Shown: positions 6,001 to 64,000 of the stretch, piece by piece
How the letters are laid out: every line of letters begins with the position of its first letter
Numbering within the stretch: position 1 is the stretch's first letter
NCBI RefSeq assembly: GCF_018977255.1
Contig: NW_024704762.1
Location: 6,634,001 to 6,698,000 of the forward strand
Length of the DNA stretch: 64,000 nt
Origin: Callorhinchus milii
Lineage: Eukaryota
Direction of reading: 5' to 3'
Made by a program: the position numbers and the translations under genes
The notes under the pieces: generated by a model
The model's input: the letters and a program-made list of their open reading frames with translations, nothing else
Database searches by the model: none
What the model was told of the DNA's origin: nothing

Positions 6001-9000
6001 TTATTATTATTATGAGTCCAAATGTGCCGAAAAGCCGTTGGAATGGACCGTTACTTTATAAAGGAGCGAGAATTAAATCACACGCGCTGCAAAGATCTCT
6101 TTACTGGATTCCGAAGCCACTTTTTTTTAAGAAAAATGAACACGAAGGATGTCAATGCAAAGAACATCTCCACCCAGTGTCAGTATCACGTATTGCTAGA
6201 GCAACAGAAAAATTCCTGTAAGGCATCACACACGGGCTGAAATTCTGGTCAGTGTTAAATGTGCGGCACCTTTGCCAAAGTCAACTGATAATGGGGAATC
6301 TCCCCCTCCCCTTCCCCCATTTAAAATTCACGCAATGTCTCCCACTAGACATCACCAAAGGTGCTGCTTACAACACTGACCAGAATTCCCGTCCATTAAT
6401 TTGCACTTTAATTCAGTGAAATGACCCCTTGATGCCTTCCTTTACCAACTATGACATTTGCAATTCGCATTGTTAACATCCTCGTGGCCTCTCCCACTGA
6501 GATTTAAGAACAAGTCATTAGTTTTGCGATGTTGACCTAAACAGTGGGAACAAAACAGATGCCAAAAATCGGGTCCCCTTTTTGGGCTTCTGAGACTATA
6601 GTACAACCTGATTTGAAGCCATTAAATTCTGACTGCGGTTCCAATGAAAGGGATGCAGTCCTGCATTTATTAAGTGGTGCTACTCACTCGAATATCTTCG
6701 AGAAGATCCTCCAAGTCTGATGCAGTCAGCCCATTCAGGAAGGTGTAGGGTTCGTGCATCTCCACAGCCAGGTCATCGTCTTCCGCACTGATGTACTTCG
6801 CAAGGAGGTCGATTGGCTTTGCTCGGCCTCCCAGGATACGGATCTTTGATCTGAAGCAAACAAATCAGAGACGGGGATGATAATATGGCCATCTTGAAAA
6901 CAGCGCTAGAGAAACAGAAACATACAACAACAAATTATTTTTGTATAGCGCCTTTCACATCGGGAGGCCTTCCCAAGGCGCCGGATAGTCAAGGGGTGGA
7001 GGGCAAGGGAGGATGCAAGCTTGAATAAATGGAGGAAAATAATAATAATAATCCGTGCATTTGATATAGCGCCTTATTAACTCTTTGAGAAGTCTCAAAT
7101 AATTTATTCTAAAATTAATTGACTGTGTATTTTGTGGGCAGTCAATTGCTCACAGCAGTGTCCTACAAACAGTCTTGGATTGAGTGATTTAATTATTATT
7201 ATTAAAAAAGACAGAGAATGAGACCTACACAGAGAGAGATAGAGGAGTTCATTTCTAAGTGATTGATCTACACACCTCAGTTTAGCTTGCTGCAGGTGGA
7301 AATAATCCTCTTGTTCCGCCCAAGTCTTGAAGTGTTCGGCTTCCTTCTCCCTCTGCAACATCTCCAGCTCCTGTTCACGGAGGCCCTTTTCGCGTTCCCG
7401 CTCCAAGCGCAGCTGCTTCACCTACAAACAGAGTGGAAAGCAATCACTTAAACGTTTAGCCGGCAAAATATAATGAATTCACTTTACAGTATATCCTGTG
7501 AAGCGCTTTGAGACGTCTCGAAGACATGAAAAGGCGCTGTATCAAATGCAAAGATTACTATTATTATTGTTGTTATTATTATCAAACAAAGCAAACAGTT
7601 TCTACCCAGCTCTGATAACAGGGTGACCTTTTCACAAGCTACCGAGCGAATAGAAGGAAATAAAAGCATTCTGCTCACAGGTACTATAGAGTACTTCATA
7701 TTGGAAGGAAAGCAGTTGTGAAAAACAAAAGAGACTAATCCATACTTTCTGCAGTTCCATACGGTTTTCCTCTTGTATCCTCTTGTTTCTATCTTTCAGA
7801 TCCTTTTCATCCAGATGGCCAATTCCTTTTTTTTCCAATGCCTGCGAGACAAGAACAAAAGAGTAAACCCCTCGCAAAAAAGCACTGTCCACGTCAGCAC
7901 ATCCTGCGCTCAGTATAAATTTGTGCATGATGTAGACCTGCCTGACGAAATGTAAACAGTATGTGCTGTGAAACAGTTTGAGACATCTCATTGACATGAT
8001 AAGACGCTGTGTCAAAGCAAAGGATCCTTATTATTATTGTTTATTATTACTATTATGCGAGCACTGAACTACTTCACTATTAAAAGAGGTGCATCGAGGA
8101 GCAACACAGATCCTTGTCGGTGGGTGTACCATTAATAATATGTTGCTGTGCGCAATCGGCTGCTGCGTTTCGCCCACAAAACAACCAGTCAATTCTCTTC
8201 ACTGTATATTCAGTGATGCGCTTTGAGACGTCTCGAAGATGTAATGAGGTGCTATCTCTTACTATTATTATTAGCTCAAACGCGAGGGTTAGTATTAATA
8301 ACGTAACCCAACCTTTTGCCAGATAAAGGTGCCAAGAAGATTGTTGTCTCCAAACGGATTGTCTGCGTTGGTGTAGCCCATGTACTCCTCGCTCCAGCCC
8401 ATCTTCTCCCTCTTCTTCCGCTCCTTGGCTTCTTTCCGAGCCAGGCGGCGAGCTCGCTTCTCCTCGGGGGTCTCCATGGCTTTGGCCATCTCCCTGCGCT
8501 TCTGCTTGTCCTCCTTCTGCTTCAGCTTCTCCTGGAGGGTCAGCAGACGGCTGACGCTGCTCGGGCTCTTGGAGCGGGAGGAAGAGGAGGACGAGGAGGA
8601 GCAGGAGGACAGGGAGGGAGAGGAGCCCCTGGAGCCCGGGGCCGGGGAGCGCGAGTGGGGTCTGGGGCGAGCCCGAGGAGGAGGGGGTGAGTGGACTCGC
8701 ATCTTCCTGGTGCTTGGAGGAGGGGCAGGACTCCTCTCCCTGCTGCTCCTCGACTGGGACCTGGACCTGGACCTGCGATGGTGGCGCCTATTCCTGGGCC
8801 TCTCGCGCCTCTTGTGCCGCCGCCGTTGCTGCCCATCCCGTTCCCGGGACCCCGAGCACCGCCTCTCCCGCTCCCGGGACCCCGAGCCCCGCCTCTCCCG
8901 CTCCCGGGACCCCGAGCCCCGCCTCTCCCGCTCCCGGGACCCCGAGCACCGCCTCTCCCGCTCCCGGGACCCCGAGCTCCGCCTCTCCCGGGACCCCGAG

Positions 9001-9131
9001 CCCCGCCTCTCCCGCTCCCGGGACCTCGAGCCCCGCCTCTCCCGCTCCCCCGAGCCCCTCCTCTCCCGCTCCCGGGACCCCGAGCCCCGCCTCTCCCGGT
9101 CCCGGGACCGTTTCCTCGGCTTCCCGCTCAT
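1..9131 (-). CDS. CACTIN: Cactin (spliceosome C complex subunit), 8 coding exons visible, 3' end continues beyond window start
   Basis: Phase-consistent GT-AG exons (-): 9131-8313, 7841-7746, 7421-7276, 6850-6688, 5828-5714, 5008-4816, 2748-2629, 259-<1. Translation has an RS-rich N-terminus, then cactin motifs: ETPEEKRARRLARKEAKERKKREKMGWSEEYMGYTNADNPFGDNNLLGTFIWQK, KIRILGGRAKPIDLLAKYI, EMHEPYTFLN, DIGYWESLLQQLKAYMARARLRERHQDVLRQKLYKLKQEQG. Confidence 0.96.
6236..6392. mobile_element. Short element with terminal inverted repeats (MITE-like hairpin) in a CACTIN intron
   Basis: Left arm aattctggtcagtgtt...gcggcacctttg (6241-6274) is the reverse complement of right arm caaaggtgctgc...aacactgaccagaatt (6356-6387); the spacer is ~80 bp. 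Confidence 0.55.
8836..9110 (-). repeat. Coding 30-bp minisatellite in CACTIN exon 1 encoding (RERERRGSGS)n
   Basis: About 9 copies of cccgagccccgcctctcccgctcccgggac, with some shortened 24-bp variants that keep the frame. Confidence 0.9.
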
Positions 9132-9451
9132 CCTCGTCCACCAGCAGCTCCCTGAGTGGGGCCTATTTCGCTCGCGTCGCGTCTCCGATGACGTTGCCGC
9201 GTGCCTCCGTCAGCGCCTCAGTCTTTAAACCCAAAGTAAAGTAACGTCACAGCCGCAAGTTGCAAAGTCATTTTTATTTAAATTCTTTTACAAGGTTTTG
9301 AATACCAATCAACACACAAAGCAAAGGTTTTGGCAATTGACAGGCGACCGAGGCACTGCTCAGGCAGTTTGCAACAAGACCTGTCCGGGAGGGGCGGGGG
9401 GGGGGGGTCTTGGTTTGTTTTGGTCGCTTTAAAGAGGCCAAGTAGTGGGCG

Positions 9452-26790: not shown

Positions 26791-27429
26791 TAAAGCATGA
26801 GGTGGTTGTGTGAAAGCGCAAAGTCCACCGACTACAATAGCCATCTTCAGCACCAAACTGGAGGATTGTTCAACATTGATTCATTTTAAACAAAACTGGG
26901 GTCTCGTTGTGTCTCAATACAGACTAAGAAGGCTGACAATCCACTGGGGGGGAAAAGTGCTATAGTGTGGGAGTTGCGGGCGGAATTGTTAATCCAAAGG
27001 TCCCATCTGGCCTTTCAGGTGGATGTTAAAGACCTTGTGACCCAATTTAAAAAGAGAAGGGAGCTTCTCCCAGTATCCAATTGACATGAAAGGTGCAATA
27101 TAAATGTGTTGTTGTCTGTATCATGCCACTGTTTGGCCAGATTAATGTATTATTTGTCCAATGGTTTGATACCTTCAAAATGACTGCCGTGTTAACCTAC
27201 AAAAAAAAAACAGTCGCTACACTGGACAGTAGTATATAGAAAGATCACAAGATCGGGGTGGGTGAAGGAGCCCCTTTGGGTAGGTTTCCAGCAGAGCAAA
27301 CCACTTCCCATTAGCTCCAACCCTAATAATGAAACACAACAAAAAACGACTTGCTGTTGCCCTTCACCGGGGAGCCCTTGGTGCCGTTCAATGTACGTTT
27401 CATGTCTTTTCAGAGATTAGCTGCTGACA

Positions 27430-30400
27430 ATGTCCACTCAGAAGCAACCGGCCAAGAGTCACAAACCGAAGGAATCTGACAGCGTTAAGGAGTCAGTCAC
27501 CGACATCATCGATCAACTGCAGGACATAGACCCCAGCCGATTATCCTTCTCTCCCTTTCTGGACTTAGACACTCAGATTTCTCTGGCTCCCATCTCTGAT
27601 AGCCCCGAGTCATCTGTTGAGGAACTTCACTCACTCCCTGATGAAAACATAGGGCCTGTGACCGAGCAATCTATTCCAAACGTCAATACTTACCAGCACA
27701 AAACAATGCCCCAGGACGTGCCCTCAAAACACAAGTCTCCTCTGGGGGCTGAGAGTTTGAATATGACCAATGTAAAATTGAAGGGGAATCACACGCTTCC
27801 ATGCGTTGAGGGCAAGAAAAAGAAAATGGCCACCAAGCCTCTCATCGTTACCACAGAAACCTCGTTCTCAACGGATACGAAAGTAGTCAGTTCAGAACCA
27901 TCAGTGGACAAGGCAAGAATCTCTCCACCGCAGACCTCGGTTACCAAGGGGTCAGGGGAGAAGTTAGAAACCCTGGAGCAGACAGATAAATTGCCCAGGC
28001 AGGCTTCAGAAGACCAACCTTTACTCGGTCAGTCACCCGACAGTGAGACCATTGATCTGATCCCCAATGACTCGGAGCCAGGCGAGGTGCTAGAATCCTG
28101 CCCCAAGGAGGGGAACGCAGATGTAAATGAGCGAAAGAAGTCCTGTTGTTGCTATTGCCAGTGCTGCACCCGGGCACACCTTAAAGCGATATTATCCATC
28201 TTCTTCGCTTTGATACTTACACCATGGATCCTCTATGGTCTCTACCTGTTTGTACCTTTTGAGCCACCGCTTTGTCCAGACCTAACCAGCCGGATAACAT
28301 TCACGCTGAGATGCAATGTCATTGCAATCATTCCAATTTTACTGGGTAAGAATTACTTACTTACATCTCCTATTTTTGCATTCTCATATAGACACCAAGA
28401 CTCATTTACGAAGCAGCTTGATGCGTTTAATGGAAAGACGTTGTTAGCGTAGGTATTCTTGAAGGGTGAGATCAAATGGGTTGTGGGGCCACCTTTATCC
28501 ATACTTTCTTGGGATGAAATTGTCGGTTTAGAGGTAAGATGATAATTGGAGGTAAACAATGATTATCTGTCTGTGTCTAATCTGTTAATCTAATGTATCT
28601 ATCAATTGGCTGCGGCGTTTCACCCACAACACACAGTCACTGCACTTGACAGTCTGACCTGTGAAGTGCTTTGAGATATTTCGATGACGTGATAAGGCAC
28701 TATATCAAACGCAAGGATTATTATTATCTATCTGCATTTTCCTGTACCCTGTCCAAGAGTGGTTATGAGGTGCTAGGAAAGTCTCACCAGATATGGGAGC
28801 AAGTTTAAGTCTCGTATGGTTGTTGCCTATATAAAGAGTCATCAAGAATGTGTTAAAGGAAAGGAAACAAAAAAGGAAATTGACCTTCTGGAGGTAACTT
28901 TAGCAACAGAGGAGATGTAACAGAGATGAGGTGCAATGTAACATTTCCTTAGGTGGTGAAAATCAGGAACCCGTTAGTTATTTCGCAAACTCCGTTCTGC
29001 TGCGTCAGATGGTGCAGTGATTTTCTGCGCGTAGAGGATTGCGTTGACTTCATTAAAAATGGTGGAAGAAACTATATCACGGTAAGTTCGGATTCGGAAG
29101 ATATTCCTGGTTGAAAACACAGTCCATTTGAGGAAGGAAGTAAAGAATCCAAAATACCAATGGGTCCATATTAATCTCTAGTTATTCCCTGCCCCAAATG
29201 GTTGAGCCCTCACCTGTTGCCTGGCTGAACAACCAGCTGTCCCCTTCCCCAACTCCACTTACAGTAATAAAGCCAGTATAAATGGACCAGTTTGTATGAT
29301 AGTGATAATGATGATGAAAAGTCTCGAAGACGTGATAAGGCGCGATATCAAATGCAACGATTATTATTTATGATTATTATCTTGATCTAATTCCTGCCCG
29401 ACAATGGGTTCCTAACATAATGATGGTGTTCGCCACCATAGTACAGAGTAAGAATGAGCTTAACACTATTTATGACAGACCCAGAAGCTTTATCCCTACT
29501 TTAACTTCTAGTCCAGCCTCAGAATAAGCCAAATCAAACTGTGATTGCCATCAGTAGAGCAGAAAATACAGGTCACCACTGAATCAACCCTCCTGTGCAG
29601 GCACCAGCTGTTGTTCCCTGACCAGCACCAGTCGGCCCAATGCATTGACTCGGCTTCTGTTGTCTCAACTCAATAAATATCATTACCTGAGCCCTGGATA
29701 ATATTAATAATAATAATAATCCTTGCATTTGATATAGCGCCTTATCACGCCTGTCTCCGAGATGTCTCAAATTGCTTCACAGAATATACAGTAGTGAATT
29801 GACTGACCGAATTATTATTTATTTATCTATTTATAAATATTTTTTGATCGATTTATAACTATTTATTGATAGATTTAGAAATATTTATTGATAGATTTAG
29901 AAATATTTATTTATAAATTTATATATTTAAATATAAATATATACGCATCAACATACAGGAGGGATACGATAAATAAATATAAATAAACTTATTTATAAAT
30001 ATAATTATTTATAAACATTGAGACACTATGTAAACTATTATTGGCAGTAAAATTGAACGAAGCATCTTGTGTTACTAAGTCGGTTTCATTTGCTCAGTCC
30101 ACTTCAAAGTAAGTTTCCCTTTTTGTCAAGTACAGAATATCACCAACGTGTGTTGTCCCCTCTCATAATAATAATAATAATCCTTGCATTTGACAGAGCA
30201 CTTTTCACGTCGGGAGGACGTCCCAAAGCGCTTCACAGAACACACTGTAAAGTGAATTGACTGTATATTTGTGGGCGAACGCGGCAGCCAAATGCGCACA
30301 GCAACGTCCCACAAACAGTCATGGATTGAAAATGACCAATTTATTATTGTTTTGGGTTTTTGGAGGGATTATTATTAGGCTCTGTGTGGAGTAAGGAAAC

Positions 30401-58885: not shown

Positions 58886-60187
58886 GAGTGAGTGAGTGAG
58901 TGACGGTTGGTCGGGGCGGGGCCGTTGCGGGTGAGTGACAGTTCTCAGGTCGAGGCGGAGCCGCTGGGGGTGAGTGACAGTTGGTCGGGGCGGGACCGTT
59001 GCGGGTGAGTGACAGTTGGTCAGGGCGGGGCCGTTGCGGATGAGTGACAGTTGGTCAGGGCGGGGCCGCTGCGGGTGAGTGACAGTTGGTCAGGGCGGGG
59101 CCGTTGCGGATGAGTGACAGTTGGTCAGGGCGGGGCCGTTGCGGGTGAGTGACAGTTGGTCAGGGCGGGGCCGTTGCGGATGAGTGACAGTTGGTCAGGG
59201 CGGGGCCGTTGCGGATGAGTGACAGTTGGTCAGGGCGGGGCCGTTGCGGGTGAGTGACAGTTGGTCAGGGCGGGGCCGTTGCGGGTGAGTGACAGTTGGT
59301 CAGGGCGGGGCCGTTGCGGATGAGTGACAGTTGTCGGGGCGGGGCCGCTGGGGGTGAGTGACAGTTCTCGGGTCGGGGCCGCTGGGGGTGAGTGACAGTT
59401 GGTCGGGGCGGGACAGTTGCGGGTGAGTGACAGTTGGTCAGGGCGGGGCCGTTGCGGGTGAGTGACAGTTGGTCAGGGCGGGGCCGTTGCGGGTGAGTGA
59501 CAGTTGTCGGGGCGGGGCCGCTGGGGGTGAGTGACAGTTCTCGGGTCGGGGCCGCTGGGGGTGAGTGACAGTTGGTCGGGGCGGGGCCGTTGCGGGTGAG
59601 TGACAGTTGGTCGGGGCGGGGCCGCTGGGGGTAAGTGACAGTTGGTCAGGGCGGGGCCGTTGCGGGTGAGTGACAGTTGTCGGGGCGGGGCCGTTGCGGG
59701 TAAGTGACAGTTGTCGAGTCGAGCCGGAGCCGCTGAGGGTGAGTGACAGTTGGTCGGGGCGGAGCCGTTGCGGGTGAGTGACAGTTGCTCGGGGCGGGGT
59801 CGTTGCGGGTGAGTGACCGTTATCGGGGCGGGGCCGCCGGGGGTGAGTGACAGTTTGTCGGGGCGGGGCCGCTGGGGTTGAGTGACAGTTGGTCGGGGCG
59901 GGGCGGGGGCCGCTGGGGGTGAGTGACAGTTGGTCGGGGTGGGGCGGGGCCGTTGCGGGGTGAGTGACAGTTGGTCGGGGCGGGGCCGCTGGGGGTGAGT
60001 GACAGTTGGTCGGGGCGGGGCCGCTGGGGGTGAGTGACAGTTGGTCGGGGCGGGGCCGCTGGGGGTGAGTGACAGTTGGTCGGGGTGGGGCGGGGCCGCT
60101 GGGGGTGAGTGACAGTTGGTCGGGGCGGGGCCGCTGGGGGTGAGTGACAGTTGGCGGGGGGGCTCGGCAGAGGTAAGTGACAGTTGG
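58886..60187 (+). repeat. ~32-bp GC-rich minisatellite (gggtgagtgacagttggtcggggcggggccgttgc), ~40 copies
   Basis: Directly visible tandem array immediately upstream of the C19orf25 first exon region. Confidence 0.95.
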
Positions 60188-60555
60188 AGGGATGGAATAG
60201 GTGAACCGGCGCCATTTTCTTTTGCCGGAGCGAACGGATTCCGCTCCCGCGGGGAGAAATCTATTCCGTCAGTTGTCTGTTTGGTGGGCTCGCCGCCGCC
60301 GCCCCTCCACACTCGGGGCTCGCTGACTGAACCCGTGGGTGGAGGAGGCCGAGTCTCGTCAGTCGGTTTGACCGAGGTGAGGTGTGGTGAGGTGAGGTGG
60401 AGGGGGGCGGAGCGCCGGCCAATGGCGGACGCGGCATTTGAATGCTGAGAGACGGTTTACTCATTAAACTCTCTCTGTCTGACCCGGGGGCAGGTTGTGC
60501 GGTGGTGGTGGTGGTGGTGGTCGTGCAGGTGGTGGAGGTGGAGGTGGTGGTGGGA

Positions 60556-61613
60556 ATGACCGCTCGAAGCAGGAAGCGACCAGTGCTGCCGACTAGGCCC
60601 GAACCGCCCTCTGTGTCCGAGGCCTTGGCCGACGTGTCAGGCGCCTCCGCCGGCGACCCGGTCTTCAGTTCCCCGGCGGAAGGCGGCGCAGGTATCAGAG
60701 CTGCAAATCGTCCCGTTTCCCCCCCCCCTCCCCTCCCTCACCCCCCCCCCTCCCCCCCCCTCACTCCCTCACCCCCTCAGGTGGTGTTTGCACTGTGGCT
60801 GTTAAGCGCTCTTCAACCTCAAACGCTCCATAAGAGGCTTCAATATGTCGCTGACCTCAACCTGTCGTGCGGTCAACTGGGAAACCAGATGTCACTGATG
60901 ATGATGATGATGATAAAATAACAATGATAATCCTTACCACATTATGTAGGGCTCTGCATTTTGTGGGCTCTGTAATCTCCCTCGACGTTGTGTTCCGGCG
61001 CTGCTCGGGCCGAACAATGAATCCCACCAATAAATATACAAAGAGCAAATAAATGTGGGTCACTCACCTCATGGCTGATTGCAGGACATTGCCGCGTGCG
61101 AATTGGGTGCCGCACCTGCCTGCGAAGGCCCGGTTACTACTACCCTTTCAGCAAAGTCCTGTGAAGTCCTAAGAAGGCGCTGTGTAAAAAAAAATGAAAG
61201 GACGATGATGATTGTTCTTATTGTTACTTGTAAGCCTTACCGAGGAAGCTGTGCGCATGAGCGAATGGCAGACGGTAATCCAGAAACTTACTGTAAAGTT
61301 ACAATACTGTTAAAATACACCAAGGTGCCTTTACAACACCTGAGAAACACCAACTTGAAAAGCAGCTTCTGTTCCTACTGTTTATTGTGTCGTTCCCATC
61401 GTTTTCTCAGAATTTCGGGCTCCAGGGAGAACAGAAGAGTTGATGCCAGACCTGGAAACCCAGTACCAGCAAAGCCGATCGTACGTTGAACTGAATAGGC
61501 GATTACAAGAGGAGCGGAATGTTCTGGCAGCTCGATGTGAGGCGCTGAGGAAAGCTGGAGAGGAACTAGACCTGAGCATTTCCGAAATTAAGGACAAGGC
61601 ATTTCAAAACTAA
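60556..61613 (+). CDS. C19orf25: UPF0449 protein C19orf25 homologue, 2 coding exons, 112 aa
   Basis: Exons 60556-60691 and 61411-61613: MTARSRKRPVLPTRPEPPSVSEALADV...DPVF | ...YQQSRSYVELNRRLQEERNVLAARCEALRKAGEEL. This matches recalled human C19orf25 motifs (LPTRPxPP, DPVF, YQQSR). Confidence 0.9.
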
Positions 61614-61680
61614 TTTGATCTGTATTTGTAGCCAACTATAAATGATCCTGCTGATAACAGCGGGTATTCTATTCTAACAG

Positions 61681-62124
61681 ATGGCATCAAACATTGACAC
61701 GGTCCCAACGTTGGAGTATGATTTTTCTCTCTGGTACTGTGAGATGGATGAAGAGGTGGCATTGACCATCTCCAGAATGCTGCACCAGAAAGGCTACAAG
61801 GGCTTCGTGGAGCGTCAAGACCAAGTAATGGGAGGCCTGCAAATAACTGAAGTTACCGATGTCATCCAACAAAGTAAATCCACCATTGTTTTATTATCTA
61901 AAAGCTCCTTGGACAGTAATTGGTGTTGGAGTGTCTCCAAGTGGAACTTTCAACACTATATTGAGCAGGGACGGAAGGTTATTCCAGTCTATGTTGACAT
62001 TCAGAAAGAACAGAGCCCATGTTTTCTAAGGCACCTAACCGGACTTGGTTACGGCACAAAATTCTTCCGAAAGAGACTTCTAGACAGCTTGGAAACCCGC
62101 AAGAAAACTGTAAAGCCGCGTTGA
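61681..62124 (+). CDS. Intronless TIR-domain-only protein (147 aa), TIRAP/TICAM-like adaptor candidate
   Basis: TIR layout: box1-like YDFSLWY, helix DEEVALTISRML, GYKGFVERQDQVMGG (BB loop), IQQSKSTIVLLS, SNWC, KVIPVY, PCFLRHL, FFRKRLLDSL. Preceded by acceptor ttctattctaacag|ATG and followed by AATAAA at 62128-62137. Confidence 0.85.
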   Translation: MASNIDTVPTLEYDFSLWYCEMDEEVALTISRMLHQKGYKGFVERQDQVMGGLQITEVTDVIQQSKSTIVLLSKSSLDSNWCWSVSKWNFQHYIEQGRKVIPVYVDIQKEQSPCFLRHLTGLGYGTKFFRKRLLDSLETRKKTVKPR

Positions 62125-62774
62125 GCAAATAAATAAACCGTTTGAGTGTAGCTGGTGTGAAATGGTGTTTAAGACGAGGTATAGTTTGGGTGAATTTGAC
62201 ACAGATTTTGATCAATATCTTTGGAATTAGGAATTCTCTGCTACAAACTTGTTGAAACGGAATCTCTAAATTCTTGGAAAAGGGAATTAGATGCCCAAAT
62301 ATAAATTGGTTTCACTCTAAACTGTACCCAGTTGAGATTCTTTCTCTCTACCCCTCCCCCTATACCAAATTCATGGTGGTTTCATGCACAAGGATAGAGG
62401 CAATCTGAAAGCTTGGAGCAATGGTTCAAAGCTTGGAATGTCCATGAAGTGTTAGATGAAGCATTGCTAAAGATTCTACTATTGGTTTTACGGGTAAAAT
62501 TATTGATCATAATGAATATTTTCAGATTTGTGTTGAAGGTAAAATGCTTATGTGGTGGATCATTTAGTTTGTATCGTATACGTATGCTGTGGGAAGTGTG
62601 TGCGTCATTCCGAGTGAGCGTGCATTGTAGCAGCACTTGGTCACAGTTCTTCCCAAATCTTAAATTCAGACAAAATTGAAAGCACAGAATTTAGTGCAGA
62701 ACAACAACACAATGACGAAAGTATGAGTTTCGTTTCTTGGCTTATTTCCTCATTCCATGTGAACTAATTAATTT

Positions 62775-62958
62775 TAGCTCCATCCCTACTTTCAAATCCT
62801 TCGTAACCCAATTTCAAATCCCGCCTAAAGGCCTTCCTTTTCGATCTTGATTACTGTCACCTCCCTCTGCCCTTGGCTCGGGGGTCAAACTCCACCACTG
62901 TCAAGCGCTCCGGGACGCTACCCCGTGTGAAGGCCGCTTTATAAATGCAAGTTGTTGT
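62775..62958 (+). mobile_element. L2 3' tail fragment
   Basis: ttcaaatcccgcctaaaggccttccttttcgat (FKSRLKAFLFD), then tail agcgctccgggacgc...gtgaaggccgctttataaatgcaagttgttg. Similar tails lie near 2781-2915, 22010-22170, 33350-33490 and 37050-37260. Confidence 0.7.
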
Positions 62959-64000
62959 AGCTGCAGCGCTCGTCTGTGAGTGCGAATCCAGGATAAAATT
63001 GTCACCTCTAGGTTTTAGTCACACTTGAAGTTGCTATTTCATTTTAAAATGGTATGGTTAGATGCTGGATTGATGTGGACTCCTGGTTTGTGACAGGCAT
63101 TGCAACTAAACAGTGAAACATGAGACCAGTTCTAGTTTCTTATGTCTTTTAATAAGGAAAAAACATTGAGGTGCGCCAGAGTCCCTGGTAAGAACAGTTA
63201 CAACATACGTAGCTCTGACTTGAGTGGGACACGTTATTTACATCTTTCTTTCAGTTCAGCCCAAAAATGCCTTTTAAAAATAGAAAACTTTTTTTTTCTG
63301 ACCAGGTGACCAAAGGCTCCAGAATCAGGAAACATCTAGATAACAGTGCAAAACACAAAGTGAAATAATTCTAGTTCAACACTAGGGTTTCAGCAAAACA
63401 TACAGACAATTAAAAAGGAATTCTCAAGTTGTTACTCTCAATACAGCAGCAAATATTAGACATTGTTCCACTGGATTAGCACTCCGTGAGTGAGTTGTAT
63501 AGCAGAGGTGTGTAATAGCATTTGTATCCAGTGATGTGAAATGTAAGGAACTGTAGAAATAAGCAGAGCTGATGTTAATAATAATAATAATCCTTGCATT
63601 TGACGTCATCATTGAGCGGTCTCAAAGCGCTTCACAGAATATACTATAAAGTGAATTGATTGTATATTTTGTGGGTGAAATGCGGCGCCCAGCAGTGTCC
63701 CACAAAGTCGTGGATTGAGTGACCAAATTATTTTTAATGTGTAATTGTAAGCCACTTGGAACTGAGTGATCAGGTCCTGGGATATCTTGCTGCCAAGTCC
63801 CTGCCTGAAGGTACTTATTGGTCAATATTTCTATCATAAAATCTAAGTGTGTCGTTCAAGGCCGTAACAGCTCAGGGTTTAGCTGATGTCTGCAACCTGC
63901 CTAATATCAGTTGAACTGACTCGGTAACGATGGCGCTGGTTATATCAAGCAGCTCATGCTGGACAAAAATGATAAATTGCATATTAGCAGAATTGCATAT

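Follow-up and report, generated by a model that had tools for sequence, protein, structure and literature searches.

An intronless TIR-only open reading frame that very probably shares the C19orf25 transcript in Callorhinchus milii

Accounts of vertebrate TLR signalling usually name five TIR adaptors. According to the cited sections of PMC11745336, adaptors signal as two-stranded filaments via BB-loop/EE and αB–C–D interfaces. A survey of 26,414 TIRs (PMC7075850, cited sections) recognizes ten named metazoan groups; none matches the family described here, whose members could sit in group 18 or among the unclassified sequences. Two amphioxus proteins, bbtTIRA and bbtTIRC, are reported to be inhibitory TIR adaptors (PMC6043800).

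The gene arrangement at this locus has its closest parallels in two-protein mRNAs. In RPP14-HTD2, STREMI-SLC35A4, MIURF-MIEF1, PYURF-PIGY as well as ASDURF-ASNSD1, a first conserved protein of ∼100–125 aa is followed by an unrelated conserved ORF. The RPP14-HTD2 mRNA encodes proteins of 124 and 168 aa, with leaky scanning or reinitiation thought likely (PMC4705651). In STREMI-SLC35A4 the second ORF is reported to be stress-gated, and its coding sequence is regarded as an intronless insert that arose by retroposition (PMC13303939, whose main text does not mention C19orf25). Reinitiation distances of 39–140 nt and out-of-frame second ORFs are on record (PMC10275272).

We analysed a window of 64,000 nt of the Callorhinchus milii genome (NW_024704762.1, positions 6,634,001–6,698,000, forward strand). 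The first-pass annotation had described a TIR-encoding ORF in this window and had missed the C19orf25/UPF0449 gene located 67 nt upstream of it. Together the two form a pair of non-overlapping conserved ORFs on one spliced transcript, an arrangement like that of RPP14-HTD2 (observed at the contig level, in five of seven runs from three studies). It differs from the RPP14-HTD2 type in the genes involved and in that the second ORF is an immune-type TIR, whose product is predicted. Absence of introns from the TIR ORF fits the retroposed insert proposed for STREMI-SLC35A4.

C19orf25 and the TIR ORF, very probably on one transcript

Features of the locus, in window coordinates, are as follows.

60178..60376, + strand: non-coding first exon of the shared transcript (contigs X1, X3, X5, X7 and X9; starts vary from 60178 to 60315; donor GAG/GTGAGG; ends approximate)
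60529..60691, + strand: exon with the C19orf25/UPF0449 start (ATG at 60556, context GGGAATGA; first 45 codons; phase-1 donor; PF15136 positions 1–37; 5′ edge approximate, in a GGT repeat)
60692..61410, + strand: C19orf25 intron, 719 nt, GT..AG (joint in six of seven presumed-RNA runs; X11 lacks it)
61411..61613, + strand: 3′ part of the C19orf25 coding sequence, opening the last exon (112 aa in total; TAA at 61611–61613; PF15136 positions 46–97)
61614..61680, + strand: spacer of 67 nt between the ORFs (frames differ by 1; unbroken contigs in seven of seven presumed-RNA runs)
61681..62124, + strand: intronless TIR-only ORF, 147 aa, start Met-Ala (Pfam, AlphaFold2, Foldseek)
62128..62137, + strand: tandem AATAAA directly 3′ of the TIR stop; the transcript has no canonical poly(A) signal before it

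In-phase splicing yields a complete C19orf25 protein of 112 aa, present as a single copy in the genome. Transcript evidence came from eight of the 14 listed runs: seven that we presumed to be RNA (three studies), a status judged from the splice joint, and the unlabelled run X11. In each of the seven presumed-RNA runs a contig is unbroken from 61408 through the C19orf25 stop, the spacer and the TIR ORF to at least 62099, and in five of them (X3, X5, X7, X8 and X9) the same contig also contains the C19orf25 GT..AG joint. The joint is on a separate contig in X1 and is missing in X6; X11 is unspliced and runs straight through 60820–62841. These contigs are assembly paths, which drop rare splice forms and are silent on starts, ends, levels and single molecules; at this level of evidence, one transcript very probably carries both ORFs. 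The simplest reading is a single mRNA of ∼0.9–1.1 kb with the C19orf25 and TIR ORFs.

Within this transcript no AATAAA lies upstream of the TIR stop, the only candidate there being a variant poly(A) hexamer, TATAAA, in the spacer at 61637. Human C19orf25 is reported to have a variant proximal poly(A) signal (PMC8934656, cited sections), and the TATAAA could end some transcripts before the TIR ORF. The 3′ ends of contigs fall at 62099–62150 in six of the seven presumed-RNA runs, which gives a weak hint of polyadenylation near the tandem AATAAA; the contig of X3 continues to 62924 and that of X11 runs on. Positions 62895–63500 are covered by presumed-RNA contigs in X1, X3, X7 and X8, which probably stem from the 3′ UTR of the APC-family gene that converges on this transcript; since the X3 contig with C19orf25 and TIR extends to 62924, the 3′ ends of the two genes may overlap.

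An acceptor-like CAG (61678–61680) abuts the TIR ATG, and position 61599 offers a GC donor that is in phase; for this reason use of the TIR ORF as a last exon or as part of a fusion was put to the test. No splice joint into 61681 was detected in contigs of the seven presumed-RNA runs, where absence is not proof, and the C19orf25-TIR fusion or splice-in at 61681 was set aside as a candidate.

Ribosomes would have to reach the TIR ATG past the 112-codon ORF; this would rather likely happen by reinitiation or leaky scanning, at a low and possibly regulated level. The ATG is in a weak context (C at −3), four ATGs are situated between the C19orf25 start and the TIR start, and one of them opens an 11-codon mini-ORF in the spacer (61642–61677) whose end is 3 nt short of the TIR ATG. 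C19orf25 shows no depletion of out-of-frame ATGs (2 observed, 1.6 expected). UGGGA, the TURBS motif, is absent from the spacer, and the RNA fold of the spacer is not notable (z −1.26). As no special reinitiation signal was found, we can only infer the translation step.

The neighbours of C19orf25 are a proprotein convertase gene, a REEP/HVA22 gene and, on the opposite strand, an APC-family gene; they match the human block APC2-C19orf25-PCSK4-REEP6. The order in the window (34000–58000) is convertase (−), REEP (+), C19orf25 (+) and APC-family (−), and the convertase-REEP pair looks inverted with respect to the human order. A long GC-rich tandem repeat (58900–60170; unit of ∼33–38 nt by eye) is situated directly upstream of the first exon. 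Exons at 8295–9209 (−) and 27421–28452 (+) resemble CACTIN and TMEM79 to the eye; neither had a Pfam match.

The TIR domain and its family

The 147-aa ORF encodes a genuine TIR domain. Its assignment in the first-pass annotation was borne out by Pfam, with matches to TIR_2 (PF13676; 7.1e-12, 46.3 bits, cut-off 28) and TIR (PF01582; 1.1e-11, 45.2 bits, cut-off 21.3), and by structure prediction. The Pfam scan detected no death, LRR or other domain in the ORF, as had been stated earlier. A Gly2 myristoylation start is a feature of TICAM2/TRAM; residue 2 is Ala here, so the annotation was also right that Gly2 is missing. The AlphaFold2 model, built from a 14-row alignment, has five strands and flanking helices in the TIR topology (pLDDT 81.7), with low confidence restricted to residues 48–53 of the BB loop. 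Its top Foldseek match was the MyD88 TIR 7beq (1.3e-7, TM 0.73), and the top ranks were occupied by MyD88, Hydra TRR-2 and oyster TIR-STING. VIA alignments of the model gave Z scores of 14–17 to TIRs of all classes (as in an alignment with Z 15.8 and rmsd 2.9 over 128 residues); with such values for every class, the fold assigns no function. An ESM Atlas search with the ORF returned generic TIR clusters only. Protein search of the genome identified a single match, and the only variant listed within the ORF is synonymous. It is practically certain that a TIR fold, an intact ORF and a conserved family are combined here with absence of both the catalytic Glu and the BB-loop Pro.

Known adaptors are encoded separately in this genome: TIRAP (L009, 160 bits to human TIRAP), TICAM1 (L020, 120 bits), a TICAM2-like gene (L052, 157 bits, Met-Gly start) and a SARM1-like exon, named by its EAG loop. 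L020 and L052 form a TICAM clade of their own (99/97 in a 40-row tree); two TIR family searches brought up no MyD88 in this genome. Against human adaptor domains the TIR ORF scored 13–19 bits, whereas true orthologues reach 120–160 bits. Scores were 13–16 bits (E 0.07–0.6) for TRAM and TIRAP, 18.7 for MyD88 and 28.9 for Hydra TRR-2; human TIRAP gave 13–14 bits, compared with 160 for L009. The likeness of several segments to TICAM/TIRAP that had been noticed by eye is therefore weak in direct comparison, while the description of a stand-alone, probably non-enzymatic TIR agrees with our data. The TICAM2/TRAM-like gene with its Met-Gly start (L052:1216–1860; C1, ∼102.995 Mb) lacks ∼20 residues over βB and the BB loop in comparison with human TRAM; an assembly error, a pseudogene and a loop-less TRAM are candidate explanations of the gap.

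The family search produced 19 matches at E ≤ 1e-8 among 1084 candidates, and other searches added more. Named members are from bamboo shark, two Lampetra species, Xenopus laevis, Xenopus tropicalis, Pelobates, Leptobrachium, Chelydra, Gopherus, Podargus, Varanus, Podarcis, Phrynocephalus, Crotalus and Ophiophagus; unnamed assemblies complete the set. Identity over the TIR domain is 33–65%. The closest named relative, from bamboo shark (63% over 96%), groups with the C. milii TIR at 97/85 in the 40-row tree. Most members have a Met start a few residues before the domain. No longer relative scored among 7990 candidates in a weak search, which missed known gene models of 273 and 334 aa. The matches listed include no named mammal or teleost member, the searches being index-limited and several members unnamed.

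The family makes a single starred clade both in a 76-row tree (100/97, with one long-branch outsider, P0059, inside) and in the 40-row tree (99/96, P0059 left out), and its branching broadly follows vertebrate groups. Both trees were built on 139–140 columns, have weak deep forks and do not include MyD88; their outgroups came from searches with the C. milii TIR as query, which favours look-alikes of the query. In both, the sister group consists of invertebrate TIR-only proteins (93/87 and 90/87, not starred). Among vertebrate clades TICAM is the closest in the 40-row tree (94/87), with no resolution in the 76-row tree, and AU tests reject neither a grouping with TICAM (p 0.34) nor one with TIRAP (p 0.25). 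Phylogeny thus sides with the new class envisaged in the first-pass annotation, giving a clade of its own and not an orthologue of a described adaptor; to judge from the sequences, this is an old separate vertebrate TIR-only family, present from lamprey to birds. A bird member, Podargus P0032 (NXX23571.1), is filed in NCBI as ‘MYD88’, apparently wrongly, and other bird ‘MYD88’ entries of ∼150 aa may hide further members. The second Xenopus laevis copy (P0045) has deletions and no precomputed Pfam match, and is likely a decaying homeologue of P0135.

Traces of linkage to C19orf25 occur in annotations of other species. A king cobra gene model consists of a full C19orf25, a linker and then a family TIR. 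TIR-only proteins of Podarcis and Pelobates are named ‘C19orf25 homolog isoform X1’ and have no UPF0449 domain, as expected if they derive from a C19orf25 transcript. Cobra, lizard and frog annotations, known from gene models and names, point to the same linkage; a metagenome scan of the relatives' genomic context gave 218 pattern matches, none of them confirmed. In the Lampetra gene models P0037 and P0130, SRP19 is joined to the initial 96 residues of the family TIR, and a free form of 134 aa exists as well (Lampetra P0128); the lamprey TIR may be located on or beside the SRP19 transcript rather than that of C19orf25. On C1 of the C. milii genome, 1 Mb separates SRP19 from TICAM2; on C21, 3 Mb separates C19orf25-TIR from TICAM1. 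This spacing, taken with the human block APC-SRP19-REEP5, suggests that the C1 and C21 pairs go back to a single ancestral region that predates the vertebrate genome duplications.

Residues of the BB loop, αC helix and C-terminus

Two segments of the ORF are considered here.

61816..61836, + strand: BB loop, residues 46–52, QDQVMGG (Met50 in the Pro column of MyD88 RDVLPG)
61921..61950, + strand: αC helix motif, residues 81–90 (catalytic Glu column occupied by Val85; the patch of the family reads W-x-x-R-V-S-E-W-N-L)

The first-pass annotation had reported that the BB-loop Pro and the NADase Glu are absent, and both absences were confirmed: Met50 and Val85, the latter closing SNWCWSV (residues 79–85) at W+4, occupy those columns. 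Residues were counted in 25 family sequences, after removal of near-duplicates, of gene models that were partial or fused, and of P0045, which is degraded. Position 50 is occupied by Ala (21), Gly (3) or Met (1), never by Pro; position 85 by Val (19) or Ile (6); and Glu occurs at W+3 to W+5 of αC in none of the 25. At position 87 (W+6), 21 of the 25 have Glu and the C. milii protein has Lys. The residues quoted earlier are indeed present, but Met50 and Lys87 are atypical of the family.

Trp18, Asp23, Leu34, Asp47, Gly51, Ser65, Trp81 and Pro102 are invariant in the 25 sequences, and Trp18, Trp81 and Trp88 are near invariant across the family; the consensus is [QR]DxVAG for the BB loop and xLxY for βE. 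A P-x-x-L-R-x-x-T/N motif has Pro in 22, Leu in 23, Arg in 16 (Arg or Lys in 19) and Thr or Asn in 20 members. Compared with F-P-S-I-L-R-x-x-T of MyD88 αD, the P, L, R and T/N columns are largely kept and F, S and I are not; the αD motif that it resembles is reported to mediate oligomerisation of MyD88/TIRAP (PMC7075850). The family-specific αC patch R-V-S-E-W-N-L sits where MyD88 and TIRAP keep patches of their own.

Among described proteins, MyD88 ranks first both for the family profile against the PDB (60 bits) and in Foldseek; its αD motif is similar in part, and it shares an Arg in αE and absence of the Glu; identity is 21–23%, the family has no death domain, and Box 1, Box 2 (RDVLPG) and βE CDYT of MyD88 (PMC7075850, cited sections) are unmatched in it. 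TICAM1 and TICAM2 share the TIR fold and absence of Glu at W+4 (Lys in TICAM1 of this genome) and are unlike the family in their long N- and C-terminal regions and BB-loop Pro, and in the Gly2 that the C. milii protein lacks. TIRAP/MAL is likewise a short TIR adaptor without the catalytic Glu (Gln in TIRAP of this genome), but its W-x-x-Y-x3-Q motif and Pro-Gly loop are absent from the family. SARM1 and other NADase TIRs have Ala-Gly at the BB-loop tip, as the family does, and many family members share the αC Trp-Cys; unlike them, the family has the catalytic Glu in 0 of 25 sequences and no ARM or SAM domains. Amphioxus P0038 and P0133 and unnamed TIR-only relatives (27–32% identity) also lack Pro and Glu.

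In the first-pass annotation the two missing residues were taken as a sign of a possible decoy, a reading that the comparison with other TIRs does not favour. According to the cited sections of PMC7075850, the αC Glu is present in <10% of MyD88, TIRAP and endosomal TLRs and is common in TLR1/2/6/10. TLR3 has Ala instead of the BB-loop Pro and needs this Ala for TRIF (PMC7215789), and the SARM1 loop reads EAG; the TLR3-like and SARM1-like loops of this genome are EGG and EAG. Since TLR3 and SARM1 do without the Pro, and MyD88 and TIRAP without the Glu, neither absence is specific to decoys; both look ancestral rather than products of recent decay, because the invertebrate TIR-only sister lacks the same residues. 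The absences thus mark neither decay nor a decoy. The missing Glu argues against NADase activity, yet it is ordinary for adaptors, given its rarity in MyD88, TIRAP and endosomal TLRs; this TIR family most probably has no NADase activity. An endosomal-type TLR TIR elsewhere in the genome (L019; C4, 17.746 Mb) has ELG replacing the Pro-Gly loop.

Eight of the last 19 residues of the ORF are Lys or Arg, so the C-terminus is basic as had been claimed, but residues 129–137 belong to helix αE in the AlphaFold2 model, which leaves only ∼10 residues as a free tail, and the tail sequence is unconserved. The proposed membrane targeting by the tail is correspondingly weak. A basic-tail membrane anchor as the main feature of the protein was rejected.

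Proposed role and alternative readings

We give about an even chance to the reading in which the TIR is the second protein of the C19orf25 mRNA and a non-enzymatic TIR–TIR regulator, likely damping TLR adaptor assembly. The conserved αC, αD and αE surfaces would dock the TIR on two-stranded adaptor filaments, most plausibly those of the TRIF/TRAM branch; binding of TIR to TIR is itself likely, as judged from the conserved residues. The bound TIR, lacking a death domain, a long tail and a lipid anchor, would have no output to contribute and would thereby cap the filament or dilute it, an outcome slightly favoured over an activating bridge. SARM1 has been proposed to end TRIF signalling by docking on filaments that it does not extend (PMC11745336, cited sections). 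The BB-loop Ala of TLR3 works for activation, so inhibition is not forced, and on the sequence features a filament-binding brake would be narrowly ahead of an activating bridge.

Such a bridge, made from the same gene and transcript, would be TRAM/MAL-like, nucleating TRIF or MyD88 filaments for a mainly non-mammalian receptor and held at the membrane by the basic C-terminus. It would account for Ala in the Pro column, which is what TLR3 uses for TRIF recruitment, for the position of TICAMs as the nearest vertebrate clade (94/87, 40-row tree), for the MyD88-like αD motif and for the C-termini, which are basic in most members (3–8 Lys/Arg in the stretch of up to 22 residues that begins at Phe129, apart from one truncated model). 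We still regard it as unlikely, though with some weight, for the C. milii TIR has no Gly2, the tail is unconserved in sequence and largely helix αE, the P116A change in TRAM is reported to abolish filaments (PMC11745336), and TIRAP and a TICAM2-like gene are already present in the genome. That the domain is an enzyme or a sensor of nucleotides whose site is altered, working with the family Glu at W+6 or binding NAD-derived signals uncut, is very unlikely: the catalytic column is Val or Ile in 25 of 25 members, C. milii itself has Lys87, and the position-87 column corresponds to an exposed Lys of the MyD88 αC motif. These facts stand against Glu at position 87 in 21 of 25, the near-invariant Trp18, Trp81 and Trp88, an xAG loop matching EAG of SARM1, and NADase TIRs in the top VIA rows, where they are tied with MyD88 within ∼1 Z.

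Other readings concern expression of the ORF. The TIR might come from its own minor monocistronic mRNA, either by splicing of the first exon onto the CAG at 61680 or from an internal start, or else from a rare fusion that uses the GC donor lying in frame at 61599. In that case the long contigs would be C19orf25 mRNA with the ORF in its 3′ UTR. The CAG directly before the ATG, AAG/GC at 61599 in phase 0, loss of rare forms from contigs and the fused cobra gene model are all compatible with this, but the seven presumed-RNA runs contain no such joint, the tract before the CAG has 10 of 17 pyrimidines, fewer than the 14 of 17 of acceptor 61410, which is used, though the used site 60528 has only 7, the weak search of 7990 candidates gave no longer relatives, and most members have their Met a few residues ahead of the domain; we find this reading quite improbable. 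A decayed retrocopy or untranslated 3′ UTR relic would be intronless, lie 3′ of a stop codon and have a weak start context, all of which is true of the ORF, and Xenopus laevis P0045 does look degraded. Yet the frame is open, members from lamprey-like animals, shark, frog, reptiles and bird retain 33–65% identity with invariant core residues, and the tree broadly tracks vertebrate groups; conservation counts against a relic, which is largely refuted and which we consider hardly credible.

The damping TIR–TIR regulator can be set in a wider picture, which we hold to be distinctly doubtful. Vertebrates would then have a sixth TIR adaptor, dating back to the lamprey split, perhaps lost from mammals, hidden in the C19orf25 ‘3′ UTR’ and gated by C19orf25 translation; stress or infection would release the TIR, which would cap TRIF/MyD88 or meet STING traffic, so that one mRNA would encode two brakes on innate immunity. 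C19orf25 has been reported as a Golgi-to-ER recycling factor restraining STING (bioRxiv 10.1101/2024.04.07.588166, cited sections), and one TIR-STING domain is found in the sister group, on a long branch in both trees. A link between the TIR and STING, based on these two observations only, is speculation.

In databases the family proteins appear as uncharacterised TIR proteins, C19orf25 isoforms or ‘MYD88’. Searches of open-licence literature and bioRxiv found no paper describing the TIR-only family or its C19orf25 linkage, and none joining C19orf25 and TIR or reporting a TIR lost in mammals. The family is likely an undescribed TIR-only adaptor-like one, overlooked because pipelines label it as 3′ UTR, C19orf25 isoform or ‘MYD88’. 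If the two-ORF reading is true, the locus is another, and old, case of a two-protein vertebrate mRNA, in which the partner gene has recently been tied to STING recycling. The family is also a natural experiment on what a TIR does when BB-loop Pro and Glu are both missing and, if it is a real signalling component, it adds to non-mammalian innate immunity from lamprey to birds.
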